Virus genome (UHGV): UHGV-0265340
Strand: one strand, 5' to 3'
From: a virus
Length of the DNA stretch: 13,709 bases
Below, piece by piece: positions 621 through 10,687 of the stretch. The position numbers and the translations under genes were made by a program. The notes under the pieces are model-generated. The model saw nothing but the letters and a program-made list of their open reading frames with translations, did not search any database and was not told the DNA's origin. How positions within the stretch are numbered: the stretch's first letter is position 1; the number at the start of each line of letters is the position of its first letter.

Positions 621-1313
621 TCAGAATTCAAATTGTCTTGCCCGCAGGCTTTTCAGCATTGGCGTGGCCCGCTGGATAACGGAACTTGACATGTCGAGAC
701 GTGTTACCTCCCTTAGTAGCGCGTCTCTGTTCTTCGTCACCATGTAGATAGTCTCAAACGCAATGTCATACAGCTTGTTCGTGTATGAGGAGTTCAGCTC
801 TTTCATTATGGGGTACAGCTGCTTGCTAAGGTCCTGGGCTTTTTCCATCCAGAGTTGCATGTAACAAAGGAGGATGATTTCCTCGGCTGTGAATTGTGGC
901 TGAATCTGCGGCTGCTGTTCGGTTGGTGCTGTTTTTCCCTGGCTGAAATAGCAGTCTTCCAGTTTTTCGAACACTTCCCACGCCTGATCGGTTTCTAGCA
1001 TTTTGGCGTGACGGGCTGCGCCTCGTTCTGTCCAGAGGATGAGGGAGCGGGCTTTCGGGGAAATTTGTAACCCTCTTAAAGATGGTTGCAAATTTTGTGA
1101 GTAGTTTAAAGCTACCCGCAAATTTTTCAGGGCATCGCCAGCCACTTTGAAAAAATGCTTTCCTTCAATAAAGCGCTCAGCATTTCTGGCGTAGTTATTT
1201 TGAATGTTCTTAACTTCAGCACCGTACAACTGCGCCAAAAGTTCGGTGGTAATAACAGGAATCTGGTTATGGGTGATCGGGGAGAGAGTTTCAACAGAGA
1301 TTTGAGTTGTCAT
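621..1313 (-). CDS. Roi/antirepressor-like phage DNA-binding protein (Bro-N/ORF6N-type N-terminus)
   Basis: 230-aa ORF with ATG at 1313 and SD-like GAGGG upstream; N-terminal segment (NYARNAERFIEGKHFFKV) resembles ORF6N/antirepressor N-domains; sits just upstream of ninB where lambdoid phages carry roi/ant-like genes. Family call is from recollection only. Confidence 0.7.
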   Translation of the reverse strand: MTTQISVETLSPITHNQIPVITTELLAQLYGAEVKNIQNNYARNAERFIEGKHFFKVAGDALKNLRVALNYSQNLQPSLRGLQISPKARSLILWTERGAARHAKMLETDQAWEVFEKLEDCYFSQGKTAPTEQQPQIQPQFTAEEIILLCYMQLWMEKAQDLSKQLYPIMKELNSSYTNKLYDIAFETIYMVTKNRDALLREVTRLDMSSSVIQRATPMLKSLRARQFEF

Positions 1314-1473
1314 AATGACGCCCTCGAGTGGTTTCTTAATAACTCACCACCGACGACGCCAATCGTCTGGTGGTGAACTGTGCAGGGTTGGCGTAACCGG
1401 GAAACCGACCGGCGCGGATCTCTCCGCCCCCACACAGCCCACCATAATTCAGATGTGCGCGTGCATACGACAA

Positions 1474-1496
1474 TAAAAAACACGCTCGCGGCGTGT
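1474..1496 (-). terminator. Intrinsic terminator on minus strand (tR2-like position)
   Basis: Minus strand reads ACACGC-CGCGA-GCGTGT followed by TTTTTT (plus-strand A-run 1475-1480, stem 1480-1485 / 1491-1496); lies between the cargo island and the antirepressor/ninB genes. Confidence 0.5.
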
Positions 1497-1594
1497 ATCT
1501 GTCGCGGTCTCTATCCAGGACGCCAATCCCGACGCCAGATTTTGCTGGCGTGCGGTGAATATAATCCCGGATACCTATTTTTGTCAAACAACCG

Positions 1595-6531: not shown

Positions 6532-6828
6532 TCAGATATTCATCAGGATTTGCTCAGAACGTCCGGCCCCAACCGGACGTTTTTTATTTGCATGAACGTT
6601 AATGGCATGCTGGAAAGCCCGGCTGATCGGACTGATATCAGATGCCATCTGGAACGCGCATAAAATCGCCGCGATGTATCGCCAGTCGGTACGACTGATC
6701 TTCGATTCATGGCAGCCAATCATCTTTGCCAGTCCCCTTTGCGTCAGAGCTGACAGGTTGATAAGTAAATCCGTTTCAGCGCGATCGATATCGCGCTGTG
6801 ATAGTTTGCTGTAACTTGTTTGTGACAT
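6532..6828 (-). CDS. cII: CII-like transcriptional activator
   Basis: 98-aa ORF; C-terminus ...NKKRPVGAGRSEQILMNI parallels lambda CII ...NKKRPAATERSEQIQMEF as recalled; central HTH; canonical position between the cro-like and replication genes. Confidence 0.85.
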   Translation of the reverse strand: MSQTSYSKLSQRDIDRAETDLLINLSALTQRGLAKMIGCHESKISRTDWRYIAAILCAFQMASDISPISRAFQHAINVHANKKRPVGAGRSEQILMNI

Positions 6829-6913
6829 TTCTTATGATTCCAAATAGTGAATAGTTAGTTGAAAGGTATGCGTGGAAACGCATATGGCCTTAGTAGGTCA
6901 GATATCTTGGGGC

Positions 6914-6959
6914 TCGCTTTTCAGCGACGTAGGACGAATGTCCATTGTGAAAAGAGCAG
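6914..6959 (-). promoter_or_regulatory. nutR-like site (boxA, small hairpin, boxB)
   Basis: Minus strand reads boxA-like CTGCTCTTTTC (6959-6949), hairpin GGAC-ATTC-GTCC, then boxB-like TCGC-TGAAAA-GCGA (6927-6914); same architecture and loop as the nutL candidate at 8305-8350. Confidence 0.5.
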
Positions 6960-6971
6960 TGTTAATTGAGC

Positions 6972-7211
6972 TTATCGTTGACGATCAGGATTCGCTACAT
7001 TGCGTAACCATTCGGCGGTAAATTTGCCATCAGATGCATTGGCGAGAATTTCCGAATAGTTGGTTTTCATCGTGTATTCGGTGCGAGGTAACGCTCCGTT
7101 TTTAACCCACTTATGAATTGCAACATTTGACAACCCGCATAAACGGGCAGCGACTGTTTGACCACCAACAGCTTTTACTGCGAATTGTATCGGATTCATA
7201 CTGCTATCCAT
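6972..7211 (-). CDS. cro: Cro-like HTH repressor
   Basis: 79-aa ORF (75 aa if translation starts at ATG 7199, which has a weak GGA SD); HTH QTVAARLCGLSNVAIHKWV; divergent from the cI-like gene across the operator region; pR-like -35 TTGACA on the minus strand (7263-7258). Confidence 0.8.
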   Translation of the reverse strand: MDSSMNPIQFAVKAVGGQTVAARLCGLSNVAIHKWVKNGALPRTEYTMKTNYSEILANASDGKFTAEWLRNVANPDRQR

Positions 7212-7283
7212 TAATTTAATTAACTTCGAGTTAATGTTAACTATTAGCTGACAGTTATGTCAACTATGTTTGATAATTAACGT
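7212..7283. promoter_or_regulatory. oR-like operator region with divergent pR and pRM
   Basis: Perfect palindrome TTAACTTCGAGTTAA (7220-7234) plus further TTAACT/AGTTAA-type inverted repeats (7236-7265); minus-strand pR -35 TTGACA (7263-7258) and -10 TAACAT (7239-7234); plus-strand pRM -35 CTGACA (7248-7253) and -10 GATAAT (7272-7277) ending 6 bp before the cI ATG, implying a leaderless cI mRNA as in lambda. Confidence 0.7.
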
Positions 7284-8054
7284 ATGGTTAAAAAAGATGA
7301 ACTAAAAGAAGCGTTCTCAAAGAGACTACTACAGGCATTATTAGATGCAGGTGTGGGCGGACGCGGTCAGGCTAAGCGGATTCAGAATGCAATGAAACTG
7401 CGAGGCATTGATATCTCTGAACCGGGGATCTGGAAATGGCTTAATTCTGCATCAATTCCAGAAAAAACAAGTATTTTGGCACTTAGTGACTGGCTTTCCG
7501 TGAAGCCGGAGTGGTTGGAGTATGGCAGTAACGAGCCATCCGTAAAACAGCGACCTTCTATTCCAAACGAATCAGAATGGGGTTCCCTTGAAACTTGGGA
7601 CAGAAATACACAACTACGAGATGATGAAGTTGAGGTGCCATATCTGAAAGACATTGAGTTTGCATGCGGTGACGGAAGAGTTCATTGCGAAGATCATAAT
7701 GGTTTTAAATTACGCTTCTCAAAAGCAACCCTGCGCCGTGTCGGAGCTAACAGTGATGGTTCTGGTGTGCTTTGTTTTCCGGCTACTGGTGATAGCATGG
7801 AACCCGTGATACCAGATGGAACAACAATCGCAGTAGACACAAACAACAAACGTATTGTTGACGGCAAACTCTACGCCATCGCACAGCCTGGTGTCGGTGA
7901 TGAAAAACTGAAGCGTATAAAGCTATTGTACAGACGCCCCGGTGGAAAACTAATCATACGCAGTTATAACAGTGAAGAGTACCCTGACGAAGAAGCAGAT
8001 ACTCAAAGCGTGGAGATTATCGGAAAAGTTTTCTGGTATTCAGTTCTGCTTTAG
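7284..8054 (+). CDS. cI: CI-type prophage repressor (HTH + LexA-like S24 autopeptidase domain)
   Basis: 256-aa ORF; C-terminal S24 motifs (GDSMEP, downstream catalytic Lys region KLKRIK); N-terminal DNA-binding region; no SD, start directly downstream of the -10 (leaderless). Confidence 0.92.
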   Translation: MVKKDELKEAFSKRLLQALLDAGVGGRGQAKRIQNAMKLRGIDISEPGIWKWLNSASIPEKTSILALSDWLSVKPEWLEYGSNEPSVKQRPSIPNESEWGSLETWDRNTQLRDDEVEVPYLKDIEFACGDGRVHCEDHNGFKLRFSKATLRRVGANSDGSGVLCFPATGDSMEPVIPDGTTIAVDTNNKRIVDGKLYAIAQPGVGDEKLKRIKLLYRRPGGKLIIRSYNSEEYPDEEADTQSVEIIGKVFWYSVLL

Positions 8055-8060
8055 CCCTCT

Positions 8061-8087
8061 CCCCCGGCCTCAGAGCCGGGTTTTTTA
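8061..8087 (+). terminator. Intrinsic terminator after cI
   Basis: Stem CCCGGC (8063-8068) / GCCGGG (8075-8080), 6-nt loop, followed by TTTTTT (8081-8086), 7 bp after the cI stop. Confidence 0.75.
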
Positions 8088-8215
8088 TTAACCCAGCTAG
8101 CCAAAACTCATCTATCCTAGCTTCTATACCCCTTCATACTTGATAACCGTCGCTCACCGAACAAGCAATAATAATTAACTAAAAATCAAAAACATAGAAT
8201 TTCCCCACAATAATT

Positions 8216-8258
8216 TTAACTTTAGGTTATTGACTAACACTAACCAACAGTTAATAAT
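8216..8258 (+). promoter_or_regulatory. pL/oL-like promoter-operator
   Basis: TTAACTTTAGGTTAT (8216-8230) matches the oR palindrome at 12 of 15 positions; -35 TTGACT (8230-8235), 16-17-bp spacer, -10 TAATAAT (8252-8258); AT-rich; directly upstream of nutL and N. Confidence 0.5.
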
Positions 8259-8304
8259 CATTTTACCAACAGGTCACCGATAACAACGCGGTCCCAATTG
8301 GAAA

Positions 8305-8350
8305 GCTCTTTAAACAACGTCGAACACTCGACTACGTGGCTGAAAAGCCA
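8305..8350 (+). promoter_or_regulatory. nutL-like site (boxA, small hairpin, boxB)
   Basis: boxA-like GCTCTTTAAACAA (8305-8317); hairpin GTCGA-ACAC-TCGAC (8319-8332); boxB-like TGGC-TGAAAA-GCCA (8337-8350); about 100 nt upstream of the N-like ATG. Confidence 0.55.
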
Positions 8351-8450
8351 GATCACCCAACCACATAAGCTGTGGGATGCAATGCTGAAGCAACCGTCTC
8401 AGGGGGTGGCTTCGAGACTGCATCACCAGAGTTTATTCGGAGAGAAGTCT

Positions 8451-8723
8451 ATGTCCAGAAAGACAGAATTTAAAGGAACCGCAACTTCCCGCCGCAGAGC
8501 ACACCGGGCTGAGCTTCAGAGTCTGGAGGCATCAAGCGCTGATAAACTGCACCGCCCCACGCCTTCACGGGTGTACTTACAGTGCAAGCGCAAAGCCGCA
8601 ATGCGAGCTGAAGTAGTCACGATAACGACATTAACCAGAAAATATGAAGGCTCCACTTGTCTTCCAAACACTGCACTTTACGCAGCTGGCTATCGCAAAT
8701 CCGGAACAATAACAGCGAGGTGA
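8451..8723 (+). CDS. N: N-like transcription antiterminator (P22 gp24 / lambda N family)
   Basis: 90-aa ORF from ATG 8451 (SD GGAGAGA 8439-8445); arginine-rich motif TSRRRAHRAELQ resembling the lambda N ARM (QTRRRERRAEKQ); C-terminus LPNTALYAAGYRKSGTITAR parallels P22 gp24 as recalled; matching nut sites on both operons. Confidence 0.8.
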   Translation: MSRKTEFKGTATSRRRAHRAELQSLEASSADKLHRPTPSRVYLQCKRKAAMRAEVVTITTLTRKYEGSTCLPNTALYAAGYRKSGTITAR

Positions 8724-9471: not shown

Positions 9472-9831
9472 ATGAACGAAACAGAACTGAAGCACATTAT
9501 CGCCCTGCTTCTGGAAGATGCCGGACAGGTTTATCGACTTAGCCCAAATTCCGCAACGCTGACACGCATCCAGATGGCAGAAAAAGCACTGAAACAGGAT
9601 AATGAAAACAGCGCATCCGAAGTTGATGCTAATGGTGAAAATGAAGTAATAGAAATAAACAGCAATATCAGCGACAGTTGCATCGCTTACAGCCACCAAA
9701 TAATTCGTGTAAGTGCAAGAATAATGGAAGTGATGGCAAGTGAGCTTGAAAAGAACAACATCAAGCCCACTGATTGTTGTTTAAGAACCGTAATGAACGT
9801 TATTTATTACTCGATGTTCCGAAGCCGCTAA
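9472..9831 (+). CDS. Hypothetical protein (119 aa)
   Basis: ATG 9472 with SD GGAG (9462-9465); acidic, AT-rich; no family recognised; 3' end overlaps the convergent ORF 9800-10009. Confidence 0.65.
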   Translation: MNETELKHIIALLLEDAGQVYRLSPNSATLTRIQMAEKALKQDNENSASEVDANGENEVIEINSNISDSCIAYSHQIIRVSARIMEVMASELEKNNIKPTDCCLRTVMNVIYYSMFRSR

Positions 9832-10009: not shown

Positions 10010-10248
10010 AAATTCACTCTCCTTACGGGGTTTGTAGTTGAGGAGTTCTCCACGGGTGAGGTGGAGATCGTGCGCCGGACACGGGTAAGTTCCGGCACTC
10101 TCAGTTTACTGAACAGACATTACCCTGAAAGCCAGGGTACAACACGAAAGTGCACGGCGAAGACTCTTTCCCATTGAAGGCTTGTCGTTAGATTTCTTCG
10201 ACCGTGCGCTTCCGGTTGTGAATAACAACATTGCTGTGTGTAGCCCTT

Positions 10249-10290
10249 GGCGGACATCGGTTTGCCGATTGCTGATGTCCGCCCTTTTTA
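10249..10290 (+). terminator. Strong intrinsic terminator with no adjacent upstream CDS
   Basis: Stem GGCGGACATC (10249-10258) / GATGTCCGCC (10274-10283) with an inner ATCGG/CCGAT pairing, followed by CTTTTT (10284-10289); nearest upstream plus-strand CDS ends at 9831. Confidence 0.6.
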
Positions 10291-10465
10291 AAGTGAATTT
10301 TGTGATGCGGTGAATGCGGCTATGCGCACGCGGAACAGTTAAACCGACAGGATGTCACGGAAAGTCATCGTCCCCTGACCCGGCGTTAGTTGTTAACTGG
10401 TTAACGTCACCTGGAGGCACCAGGCACCGCATCAACAAAGTTCATTTGTGAAAATGGAGATAATT

Positions 10466-10687
10466 ATGATTGCTCATCACTTCGGAACTGATGAAATACC
10501 ACGTCAGTGCGTGACGCCTGGCGATTATGTTCTTCATGAAGGTCGGACATATATCGCTTCAGCAAACAATATTGAAAAGAGAAAACTCTATATTCGTAAC
10601 TTCACAACAAAAACATGCATTACCGACTGCATGATTAAAGTTTTCATCGGGCGCGATGGCTTACCCGTAAAAGCAGCGTCGTTGTGA
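10466..10687 (+). CDS. Hypothetical small protein (73 aa)
   Basis: ATG 10466 with SD GGAGA (10456-10460, 5-nt spacing); in-frame alternative ATG 10454 and GTG 10448; Cys-containing, AT-rich; no family recognised. Confidence 0.5.

Follow-up and report, generated by a model that had tools for sequence, protein, structure and literature searches.

Probable nutL and nutR sites in a lambdoid prophage of the Shiga-toxin type, with a boxB better read as a GNRA tetraloop hairpin

Several cognate pairs of an N protein and its boxB RNA have been described among lambdoid phages. In lambda, the boxB pentaloop (GAAAA or GAAGA) adopts a GNRA fold with one base extruded (PMC12027372), and the spacers between boxA and boxB consist of 8-9 unstructured nucleotides (PMC2724277 Table 1). 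In the N/boxB pair of P22, likewise, an arginine-rich helix of gp24 recognises a GNRA-like fold, and the looped-out C of the pentaloop contacts the peptide (PMC12550061). The nutR site of phage H-19B has been described as 'two hairpins', and footprinting showed binding of N with NusA/G at the spacer and boxB (PMC3526286). For epsilon34, 'a novel BoxB specificity' was only predicted, from the N-terminal 27 residues (PMC2629481).

Here, nut sites are described in a 13,709-nucleotide stretch of viral DNA (UHGV-0265340; the window), which shares ~98% identity with the Stx phages POCJ13 and 75/02. The window very probably carries the two N-utilisation sites of a lambdoid prophage of the Shiga-toxin type, nutL and nutR, with binding and antitermination predicted to proceed as set out below. 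Both are ordinary regulatory elements in a layout already known from H-19B; the unusual detail is the 4-base GNRA loop of boxB.

Genomic setting and composition of the nut sites

A sequence-only reading of the window had proposed a nutL upstream of an N-like gene and a nutR with the same three-part layout on the other operon. The sequences it described are present to the base, the gene belongs to the N family by its Pfam N_peptide match, and the layout does recur on both early operons (Table 1). Their placement on the early transcripts is typical of nut sites, with nutL between PL and N, and nutR after cro and before cII. Both boxA elements resemble CGCUCUU(U)A and the rrn sequence UGCUCUUUAACAA (reference sequences: PMC2724277), a purine-rich GNRA-like boxB hairpin with compensatory changes lies downstream of boxA, the two sites share the boxB loop GAAA, and the gene beside nutL encodes an N protein whose N-terminus bears an arginine-rich motif.

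Table 1. Positions of the nut sites and neighbouring features in the window
Feature	Coordinates	Strand	Sequence or content	Basis and remarks
cII gene	6532-6828	-		Pfam Phage_CII, E = 2e-26; first gene downstream of nutR
Candidate tR1-region hairpin	6867-6884	-	UAUGCG-UUUCCA-CGCAUA	Between nutR and cII; putative function
nutR	6958-6914	-	boxA, short spacer hairpin, UACG, boxB hairpin	
nutR boxA	6958-6945	-	(T)GCTCTTTTCACAA (RNA UGCUCUUUUCACAA; also given as TGCTCTTTTCACAA)	Homologue annotated 'nutR boxA' in mEp234 record
nutR spacer hairpin	6943-6932 (arms 6943-6940, 6935-6932)	-	GGAC-AUUC-GUCC	Identical to H-19B nutR spacer hairpin
nutR TACG linker	6931-6928	-		
nutR boxB	6927-6914	-	UCGCU-GAAA-AGCGA	Fold; identical 14-mer annotated in g341c
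cro-like gene	6972-7211	-		ORF list; helix-turn-helix or Cro annotation in relatives
PR-like promoter	7234-7263	-	TTGACA-18-TAACAT	Consensus scan; upstream of cro; putative function
PL-like sigma-70 promoter	8230-8258	+	TTGACT-17-AATAAT	Consensus scan, 10/12 matches; putative function
nutL	8305-8350	+	boxA, short spacer hairpin, UACG, boxB hairpin	
nutL boxA	8305-8317	+	GCTCTTTAAACAA (RNA GCUCUUUAAACAA)	rrn/lambda-type; GCTCTTTNNACAA exact match
nutL spacer hairpin	8319-8332 (arms 8319-8323, 8328-8332)	+	GUCGA-ACAC-UCGAC	In minimum-free-energy fold
nutL UACG linker	8333-8336	+	Single-stranded	Between spacer hairpin and boxB
nutL boxB	8337-8350	+	UGGCU-GAAA-AGCCA; 5-bp stem and GNRA tetraloop	Minimum-free-energy fold
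N-leader hairpin	8361-8440	+	Long hairpin, outside nut	Between nutL and N ribosome-binding site
N antiterminator gene	8451-8723	+	90 aa; arginine-rich motif GTATSRRRAHRAELQ	Pfam PF25694 N_peptide, E = 1.2e-25

The composite core CTACGNNGCTGAAAAGC, searched with up to two mismatches, occurs twice in the window, at nutL and nutR, against 0.01 matches expected by chance, and none of 200 shuffles reaches two occurrences. Exact matches to GCTCTTTNNACAA are confined to the two boxA elements. The nutL boxA, a putative NusB-NusE/S10 site, is kept in VT2-Sakai and the IMG/VR relatives, and VT2-Sakai homology starts exactly at this element. The UACG linker is common to nutL and nutR of the window, H-19B, VT2-Sakai and g341c; it is invariant in our alignment of related sites (A2), partly by ascertainment, as the scans and the site filter required it.

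Folded with ViennaRNA, the nutL and nutR RNAs have a minimum-free-energy structure of two hairpins (-12.8 and -11.5 kcal/mol, respectively), with z-scores that are modest for isolated elements (-2.1 for nutL, -1.7 for nutR). In nutR, the centroid structure, in which the 3' half of boxB is paired with boxA instead, is an alternative of nearly equal energy. Neither 6914-6958 nor 8305-8350 is hit by any Rfam 15 family, even at E <= 5. Elsewhere in the window, Rfam 15 matches the unrelated RNAs isrK and C4, together with a weak DicF-like match.

The PL-like promoter lies downstream of the cI terminator (8063-8080), and transcription from it would start near 8265, ~40 nt upstream of the nutL boxA. 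Between nutL and the N gene, which are ~100 nt apart, the leader (8351-8465) folds at -38.5 kcal/mol (z = -2.1); its long hairpin shows a paired change in one relative (GTCTC/GAGAC vs ATCTC/GAGAT in L007) and is possibly analogous, also in function, to the lambda N-leader hairpin. An indel relative to VT2-Sakai shifts the frame here, which shows the leader to be non-coding. An N start at the upstream in-frame ATG (8382) was rejected on the same indel, the conserved start being MSRKT. Compared as a whole with PDB entries, the N protein gave no match; a profile of its arginine-rich motif was needed, and this matches the lambda N motif (RRRERRAxxQ) in 5LM7, 6GOV and 1QFQ. On the other operon, the cro stop codon (6972) is 14 nt upstream of the nutR boxA, and a homologue of the hairpin preceding cII is annotated 'Putative tR' in g341c.

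These elements suggest how the sites may work. The PL transcript would carry nutL, and the PR transcript nutR just after cro. On each, boxA would be the landing site for host NusB-S10, and NusA may contact the conserved single-stranded ACAAY and UACG that flank the spacer hairpin, by analogy with lambda and H-19B. The boxB hairpin, predicted to have five base pairs, closed by U-A and capped with a GNRA tetraloop (GAAA), would be bound at stem and loop by the lambda-like arginine-rich motif of N (SRRRAHRAELQ) folded as an alpha-helix. Kept on RNA polymerase through RNA looping, the N-Nus-RNA complex would let polymerase pass the early-operon terminators, namely the tR1 region before cII and the terminators beyond N. 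We infer the binding partners, the activity in antitermination and what the spacer hairpin does.

The boxB loop and its relation to N

Related sites were collected in several ways. An N-based scan of IMG/VR returned 80 near-identical relatives, and DNA-pattern scans were therefore used to obtain comparative sites. Searching GTDB genomes with the N alignment yielded four loci, too few for a survey, among them a Tatumella homologue (L326). Most comparative sites were found through patterns fixing CTACG and the inner GCU/AGC of boxB, and these positions consequently carry no independent information. Motif conservation in homologous phages had been set as a check by the sequence-only reading, and comparative alignment bears it out.

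The same reading had described boxB as a hairpin with a purine-rich loop, which is present, and had parsed it as a 4-bp stem (UGGC/GCCA) with a 6-nt UGAAAA loop, which folding and comparison replace with five base pairs and GAAA. A six-base loop would place boxB closer to the hexaloop known from phi21 (PMC12550061) than to a GNRA tetraloop, and the terminal U-A pair beside the loop is indeed thermodynamically weak. This parse is nevertheless very unlikely. ViennaRNA pairs U8341 with A8346 in nutL, giving the stem TGGCT/AGCCA and a GAAA loop, and pairs the equivalent U and A in nutR. All five positions pair in 90/90 related sites, the inner GCU/AGC having been fixed in most retrieval patterns, and the outer pairs vary among them (UA/GC/AU/CG and CG/GC/AU). 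The closing pair is U-A in 89/90 sites, with the same limit on its independence, and C-G in the remaining one, the Tatumella homologue (UGGCC-GAAA-GGCCA), in a double compensatory change. The second loop base varies between A and C, as the N of GNRA should: the window has GAAA and its closest relatives GCAA, a polymorphism found among N loci that are 94-99% identical. Moreover, the closing U-A pair of lambda is needed for N binding (PMC12027372), and the arginine-rich motif here is lambda-like. Five base pairs, with a Watson-Crick pair closing a GAAA tetraloop, are thus the better reading of boxB. At 4 nt in both nutL and nutR, the loop also falls outside the lambda/P22-type pentaloops (GNRNA or GACAA).

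This difference of one nucleotide follows the N protein across relatives. In 158 nutL-N pairs, a GAAA or GCAA loop accompanies a lambda-like RRRxRRAxLQ arginine-rich motif, and in 83 a GACAA loop accompanies the motif RRRERLKAKALANG, with no exception in the 241 pairs. The loop type of nutL and nutR also agrees within loci: 117 are GAAA/GAAA, 10 are GAAA/GCAA and about 70, including some with an additional unrelated hairpin, are GACAA/GACAA. Two loci have mixed loops. One (L138) is a same-strand tandem array; the other (L272) is a pair of non-nut sequences, one without the family spacer hairpin and the other without boxA and the CUACG linker. On these pairings, boxB loop length (GNRA tetraloop or GACAA pentaloop) is the feature matched to N class, a match that the sequence-only reading missed because of its parse of boxB into four base pairs and six loop bases.

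A nut array was also seen in one satellite island. As an explanation of helper induction of the PICI EcCICFT073, a nut array was rejected, EcCICFT073 having no boxB array.

With the loop GAAA and the motif RRRAHRAELQ in place of the GACAA pentaloop and RRRERLKAKALANG that mark H-19B specificity, the window belongs, by sequence, to a sister specificity subclass outside the H-19B group. VT2-Sakai/Sp5, POCJ13, epsilon34/g341c and many enterobacterial prophages combine a GAAA/GCAA boxB with RRRxRRAxLQ. We lean slightly towards this combination being a distinct natural N-boxB specificity group, in which the loop recognised by N would be a true GNRA tetraloop, no base being extruded. If so, the tetraloop and GACAA (H-19B/P22) groups would be orthogonal, and the tetraloop group would do without the extruded-nucleotide contact of the solved lambda and P22 complexes, implying a different N-NusA-boxB interface or a different host-factor dependence.

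More broadly, these sites point to a natural boxB class that joins a canonical GNRA tetraloop to a lambda-like arginine-rich motif. As every solved N-boxB complex has either a pentaloop (lambda, P22) or a hexaloop (phi21), the tetraloop class offers an easy test of the part that the extruded base plays in specificity and Nus-factor recruitment. Our literature search found no experiment on this phage or on any tetraloop-class nut site, and no paper describing the nut sites of VT2-Sakai-type phages. In the records of these prophages N is annotated and the nut sites usually are not; the present comparison gives the exact positions of nutL and nutR in a widespread prophage family, Shiga-toxin prophages and their relatives. 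N-dependent antitermination lies upstream of late-gene, and hence Stx, expression, which makes the practical relevance real but indirect.

Conservation and possible roles of the spacer hairpin

The hairpin between boxA and boxB, together with a boxA-boxB spacing of roughly 20 nt, had been put forward as a variant architecture matched to this N protein. It would then be novel and co-evolved with N, and the layout does differ from that of lambda and is found at both nut sites of the window. Such novelty is, however, highly improbable. The nutR spacer hairpin is identical in H-19B, 933W-type phages, HK97 and mEp234, whose N motif is RRRERLKAKALANG and whose boxB loop is another, and the two-hairpin nutR of H-19B has already been published (PMC3526286). 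Since H-19B nutR has the same spacer hairpin, the 'extra hairpin' is no new architecture, and since the hairpin occurs with two classes of N arginine-rich motif, it is not the feature matched to this N. Both nutL and nutR of the window have a structured spacer of the H-19B type, and the hairpin is, as far as these comparisons reach, a family trait.

Among 90 distinct related sites defined by their context, 89 have a spacer hairpin, against 7.5% of shuffles. The stems differ widely: GUCGA/UCGAC, GGUGA/UCACC, GAUUC/GAAUC and GAAGA/UCUUC are found at the nutL position in relatives, and GGCC(G)/(C)GGCC and GGCA/UGCC, with loops of 2-5 nt, at the nutR position. At least six different stems covary across the sites. 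In 89 distinct sites, 91% of cells are paired, compared with 68% in shuffles, and two-sided changes affect four of five spacer pairs and three of five boxB pairs. The covariation score is 0.535 vs 0.127 for shuffled sequences, and 0/500 shuffles reach 0.535. Because the compared sequences are related, all these shuffle controls overstate significance. The strong covariation shows that the spacer hairpin is under selection.

Three readings of its role were weighed. The first, which we hold tentatively and with somewhat less than even confidence, is that the hairpin is a selected structural spacer that would hold boxA and boxB in a set geometry and its own flanks in single-stranded form, and would not be a sequence-specific protein site. 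Against it, deletion of the hairpin or mutation of one arm barely alters the probability of boxB formation in silico, and deletion of the H-19B dyad reportedly had little effect on antitermination.

In the second, the hairpin has no positive function, and its arms are complementary only to avoid misfolding with boxB or boxA. This is possible but rather unlikely. The dyad symmetry of the H-19B nutR spacer was reportedly analysed by Neely & Friedman (2000), and a role against misfolding is said to have been proposed for it; single-arm mutants were reportedly inactive, compensatory mutants active and deletion tolerated, a pattern that we count in favour of this explanation. The title of that paper mentions 'alternative NUT RNA structures', covariation of the spacer arms goes with drift in the length and sequence of the loop, and some random single-arm mutants of the window sites bring boxB pairing probability below 0.2 in silico. 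On average, however, random arm mutants leave boxB unsequestered in silico (mean pairing probability 0.63-0.85 vs 0.64-0.85 for wild type). A dispensable hairpin should also be lost often, yet it is kept at nearly every site, fixed beside UACG, with its many different stems.

In the third, the palindromes act as DNA, either as operator-like protein sites or as a terminator of antisense transcription. A terminator scan does flag the reverse complement of the nutL spacer hairpin with a T-rich run (8332-8319, - strand), but this candidate is weak (5 bp, three of them G-C pairs), and no counterpart was seen at nutR. The covarying arms and a loop of 2 to 6 nt fit RNA pairing, unlike the fixed spacing of DNA half-sites, and the elements follow the transcription starts, fixed relative to the sense-strand boxA and boxB at both divergent operons. 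A role as DNA is therefore extremely unlikely.

Likeness to known systems

The phi21 system is also a lambdoid cognate N-boxB pair. Some tetraloop-class N proteins have C-termini (…GRQK..SIPLI) that resemble the phi21 N type. In its boxB, phi21 has a CUAACC hexaloop with a U-turn mimic (PMC12550061), unrelated in sequence to the boxB of the window. The boxB of P22 (GCGCU-GACAA-AGCGC) is identical to the nutL boxB of H-19B, and its loop has an extra base that the boxB of the window does without.

With lambda, the window shares the CGCUCUU(U)A type of boxA, a boxB of five base pairs closed by U-A beneath a purine loop (G-A-A...A), and an N motif of the RRRERRAxxQ type. The unstructured spacer of lambda is a hairpin in the window. 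Glu26 of the window N aligns with Trp18 of lambda N, leaving no Trp at that position.

Salmonella phage g341c belongs to the same class as the window by its N motif (GRRRERRAALQ). Its nutR is identical to that of the window in the spacer hairpin, UACG and the 14-nt boxB (TCGCTGAAAAGCGA), which is annotated there as 'Putative NutR (similar to NutR Epsilon34)', and its nutL boxB is CGGCU-GAAA-AGCCG. Both g341c and epsilon34 are P22-like Salmonella podoviruses, and differ from the window in having no good boxA core at either nut site and a longer central region in N.

The layout of H-19B, shared by 933W, HK97 and mEp234, likewise consists of boxA, a spacer hairpin, UACG and a 5-bp boxB, with nutR again after cro. 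The nutR regions of H-19B and the window are 93.6% identical over 109 nt, with GGAC-AUUC-GUCC and its flanks unchanged, and that of mEp234, in which boxA and boxB are annotated, is 94.5% identical. The N proteins of H-19B and the window belong to the same Pfam family and have a common C-terminus (...CLPNVALYAAGYRK). They differ in the arginine-rich motif (RRRERLKAKALANG in H-19B, RRRAHRAELQ in the window), and the H-19B nutL has no recognisable GCUCUU boxA core, whereas the window nutL has one. In boxB, the H-19B pentaloop (UCGCU-GACAA-AGCGA) gives way in the window to GAAA, one nucleotide shorter.

Nut sites in the immunity region

The window comes from a lambdoid prophage, of which it represents the immunity and early region (see table). 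Its segment 6850-8750 aligns over its full length with Shigella phage POCJ13, phage 75/02 Stx and Escherichia phage phiSTEC1589-Stx1c at 98.3% identity, and is 99.9% identical to a prophage in an E. coli isolate. Within it, nutL and nutR are a genuine, correctly located nut pair of the H-19B-type structured-spacer kind. All nut sequences given in the sequence-only reading were found exactly, at both sites. The core CTACGNNGCTGAAAAGC, allowing up to two mismatches, occurs in the window just at nutL and nutR (0.01 expected by chance; none of 200 shuffles gave two), and exact matches to the boxA pattern are confined to the same places. An Rfam scan of the window returned no family over the elements of either site.

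Features of the immunity and early region
Feature	Position	Strand	Sequence or support
C4 antisense RNA	1366-1449	-	Rfam, above gathering score
C4 a1/b1 targets	1512-1564	-	Rfam, above gathering score
isrK	1475-1551	-	Rfam, above gathering score
Antirepressor gene	621-1313	-	ORF6N/P22_AR_C
Replication genes		-	
cII	6828-6532	-	Phage_CII, E = 2e-26
nutR boxB	6927-6914	-	TCGCTGAAAAGCGA
nutR linker	6931-6928	-	TACG
nutR spacer hairpin	6943-6932	-	GGAC-ATTC-GTCC
nutR boxA	6958-6945	-	TGCTCTTTTCACAA
cro	7211-6972	-	
PR-like promoter	7263-7234	-	
cI-type repressor	7284-8054	+	Peptidase_S24
cI terminator	8063-8080	+	
PL-like promoter	8230-8258	+	
nutL boxA	8305-8317	+	GCTCTTTAAACAA
nutL spacer hairpin	8319-8332	+	GTCGA-ACAC-TCGAC
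nutL linker	8333-8336	+	TACG
nutL boxB	8337-8350	+	TGGCTGAAAAGCCA
N-leader hairpin (long, stable; between nutL and N Shine-Dalgarno)	8361-8440	+	-38.5 kcal/mol, z = -2.1
N protein, 90 aa	8451-8723	+	Pfam N_peptide PF25694, E = 1.2e-25

The minimum-free-energy structure of both nut RNAs consists of two hairpins, with boxB forming a 5-bp stem and a 4-nt GAAA loop. For nutR (6909-6964, minus strand), an alternative fold is almost isoenergetic (-11.2 vs -11.5 kcal/mol); here, boxA GCUCUUUUC pairs with the boxB 3' half and flank (GAAAAGCGAGC), enclosing the spacer hairpin.

Further candidate regulatory elements lie elsewhere in the window. The N-leader hairpin recalls that of lambda, which controls N translation, and, compared with close relatives, has changed on both arms (GTCTC/GAGAC vs ATCTC/GAGAT). 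A frame-shifting indel distinguishes the N leader of the window from that of VT2-Sakai, so the annotated VT2-Sakai N start (114 aa) is probably too far upstream. Within the PR operon, C4 and isrK matches lie just upstream of the antirepressor gene, a layout suggestive of antisense control by an immI-like module of the P1/P7 type. In the PL operon, two Rfam matches below threshold fall at 10235-10480 (plus strand), one to DicF (29.5 bits, E = 0.005) and one to STnc100 (31 bits); they may be small-RNA genes like those of Qin-type prophages.

The boxB loop and the class of N

The sequence-only reading had drawn boxB as UGGC-UGAAAA-GCCA, with a 4-bp stem, but three observations favour UGGCU-GAAA-AGCCA. 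The energy model pairs the closing U-A. GCAA replaces GAAA at nutL of loci with an N 94-99% identical to the N of the window, and it also occurs at nutR of another locus; this change falls on the N position of GNRA, as expected for a tetraloop. Finally, the boxB of a Tatumella prophage, UGGCC-GAAA-GGCCA, shows a compensatory U-A to C-G swap at the closing pair. The loop of lambda boxB, a GNRNA pentaloop, adopts the GNRA fold with one extruded base, and the hairpin requires its U-A closing pair (PMC12027372). P22 boxB has a GACAA pentaloop whose looped-out C contacts the peptide, and phi21 boxB a CUAACC hexaloop (PMC12550061). No natural tetraloop boxB is found among these studied lambda, P22 and phi21 cases.

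Comparison loci, several hundred in total, were collected by IMG/VR pattern scans and N-based scans. Across 241 nutL-N pairs, loop type corresponds to the N arginine-rich motif with no exception: GAAA or GCAA accompanies RRR[AEDV][RHQ]R[ASL]x[LVMF]Q (158 pairs, 39 distinct motif variants), and GACAA accompanies RRRERLKA[KQ]A[LI]A (83 pairs, seven variants). The motif of the window, SRRRAHRAELQ, belongs to the GAAA/GCAA class. Loop class is equal at nutL and nutR within a locus, bar two mixed loci. One (L138) is a same-strand tandem array; the other (L272) comprises two non-nut sequences, one without the family spacer hairpin and the other without boxA or the CUACG linker. The motif profile matches that of lambda N (GNAKTRRRERRAEKQA; native lambda N in 5LM7, 6GOV and 1QFQ), so the tetraloop class combines a lambda-like arginine-rich helix, stem and closing pair with absence of the extruded base. 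Consistent with the loop/motif pattern is a prediction in the epsilon34 genome paper, based on the 27 N-terminal residues of that phage's N, of 'a novel BoxB specificity' (PMC2629481). Since the spacer hairpin occurs with both N classes, the specificity determinant lies elsewhere, which speaks against the earlier proposal that hairpin and spacing form an architecture matched to the N-like protein.

Similarity between the window and VT2-Sakai (L005) begins exactly at nutL boxA (window 8300-8310, L005 3500-3510), a mosaic junction that separates immunity-specific PL/OL sequence from the shared nut-N module. Tetraloop-class N proteins have at least three unrelated C-terminal halves (loci L089, L128 and the Tatumella homologue L326, compared with the window). 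Together, these observations indicate that the arginine-rich motif and nut are exchanged as a modular unit.

The N of locus L327 (IMG/VR 2534681954_000010) belongs to the H-19B class (RRRERLKAKALANG). At nutL of this locus, the usual GAUUC hairpin and UACG precede GCUCCGUCAACGAGC, a sequence of neither GAAA nor GACAA type that may represent a third variant or a boxB that has degenerated. A U-G pair closes the boxB loop of the L327 nutR, UCGCU-GACAA-GGCGA (sites at ~8208-8245, minus strand, and ~4117, plus strand).

A nut array in a satellite island

A PICI-like satellite island at tRNA-Thr (P4-type integrase, AlpA-like helix-turn-helix gene, AntA/B, ash, TOPRIM/DUF927 primase) contains nut modules arrayed in tandem in the stretch from int to the AlpA-like gene, each in the orientation of alpA (locus L348 9100-9570, E. 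coli NZ_LR898874.1, reverse-complemented; also L138 1500-1830 and L137 1420-1560). At least four specificities are represented: tetraloop (boxA, hairpin, UACG and CAGCU-GAAA-AGCUG), P22 (GCGCU-GACAA-AGCGC plus boxA), H-19B nutL (GAUUC-hairpin-UACG-GCGCU-GACAA-AGCGC) and the exact lambda nutR boxB (GCCCU-GAAAA-AGGGC). A fifth, phi21-like, is possible (CACGC-CUAAUA-GCGUG). A strong terminator-like hairpin lies 3' of the array (L348 9532-9566), and the alpA ATG is at 9652. Part of the int-alpA intergenic region is present in 663 of 5426 complete E. coli genomes.

In published work on PICIs, alpA transcription is reported to be turned on by helper phages through an unidentified phage factor (PMC6092414, PMC11773190). 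We hypothesise that the island senses lambdoid helpers via N-mediated antitermination into alpA. Among the papers searched, none linked PICIs to nut sites or antitermination. The array is absent from EcCICFT073, the island of those PICI papers (L350 8150-8540), limiting this idea to the thrW-type island.

The spacer hairpin and published nut sites

For the structural comparison, nut sites were defined by context alone, as divergent pairs 0.8-4.5 kb apart, giving 90 distinct sequences. A spacer hairpin of at least 4 bp stands directly before UACG at 89 of the 90 sites; upstream segments, once shuffled, contain one in 7.5% of cases, a comparison to be read with the phylogenetic relatedness of the sequences in mind. 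Stems differ widely (GGAC/GTCC, GTCGA/TCGAC, GATTC/GAATC, GGTGA/TCACC, GGCC(G)/(C)GGCC, GGCA/TGCC; GAAGA/TCTTC in the satellite island), and loops span 2-6 nt. When 89 sites were aligned with MAFFT, pairing held in 91% of cells (68% in shuffles), and the covariation score of 0.535 (0.127 in shuffles) was reached by none of 500 shuffles. Sliding the partner columns gave 25-47% pairing, and four of the five spacer pairs have changed on both sides. All five boxB positions pair in 90/90 sites, the inner GCU/AGC being set by the search patterns, and covariation is seen in the two outermost pairs (UA/GC/AU/CG and CG/GC/AU). Where boxB looks 'unpaired' in the alignment, in ten rows, this is an artefact of how MAFFT placed gaps at GACAA nutL sites. 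ACAAY and UACG, 5' and 3' of the hairpin, are conserved and single-stranded, the CUACG linker again being fixed by the patterns. The comparative alignment proposed earlier as a check came out in favour of the motifs, which are kept in homologous phages, with both helices covarying. Such strong selection for spacer pairing argues for a function of, or constraint on, the hairpin. In-silico spacer-arm mutants left a simple model of protecting boxB from misfolding unsupported.

What the analysis shows for the sites is where they lie, how they fold, that they are homologous to a validated nut site, that both helices covary and that loop type varies together with the N motif. By analogy with lambda and H-19B, boxA would recruit NusB-S10, NusA would contact the spacer region and the N arginine-rich motif would bind boxB, a complex expected to let RNA polymerase resist termination in the tR1 region and at the leftward terminators.

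The nutR site and its flanks share 93.6% identity over 109 nt with H-19B, 96.3% with HK97 and 94.5% with mEp234, whose GenBank record annotates nutR boxA and boxB at homologous positions. H-19B nutR (CGCTATTTTCACAA-T-GGAC-ATTC-GTCC-TACG-TCGCT-GACAA-AGCGA) has an identical spacer hairpin and linker, and its boxB differs solely by an extra loop C; two hairpins are described for this site in PMC3526286. H-19B nutL is GATTC-GAATAT-GAATC-TACG-GCGCT-GACAA-AGCGC. Neely and Friedman reportedly described dyad symmetries in the H-19B spacers in 2000; single-arm changes are said to have been inactivating, compensatory changes restorative and deletion tolerated. In Salmonella phage g341c, nutL is GATTC-AGTGAT-GAATC-TACG-CGGCT-GAAA-AGCCG, and an exact TCGCTGAAAAGCGA is annotated 'Putative NutR (similar to NutR Epsilon34)'. 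The tetraloop-boxB subclass is annotated in g341c, modelled on epsilon34; no experimental study of it was found. VT2-Sakai has the same arrangement as the window, with GAAA loops at both sites. The 'extra small hairpin', initially read as part of a possible variant architecture, is therefore a known trait of the nut family, shared with H-19B, VT2-Sakai and g341c.
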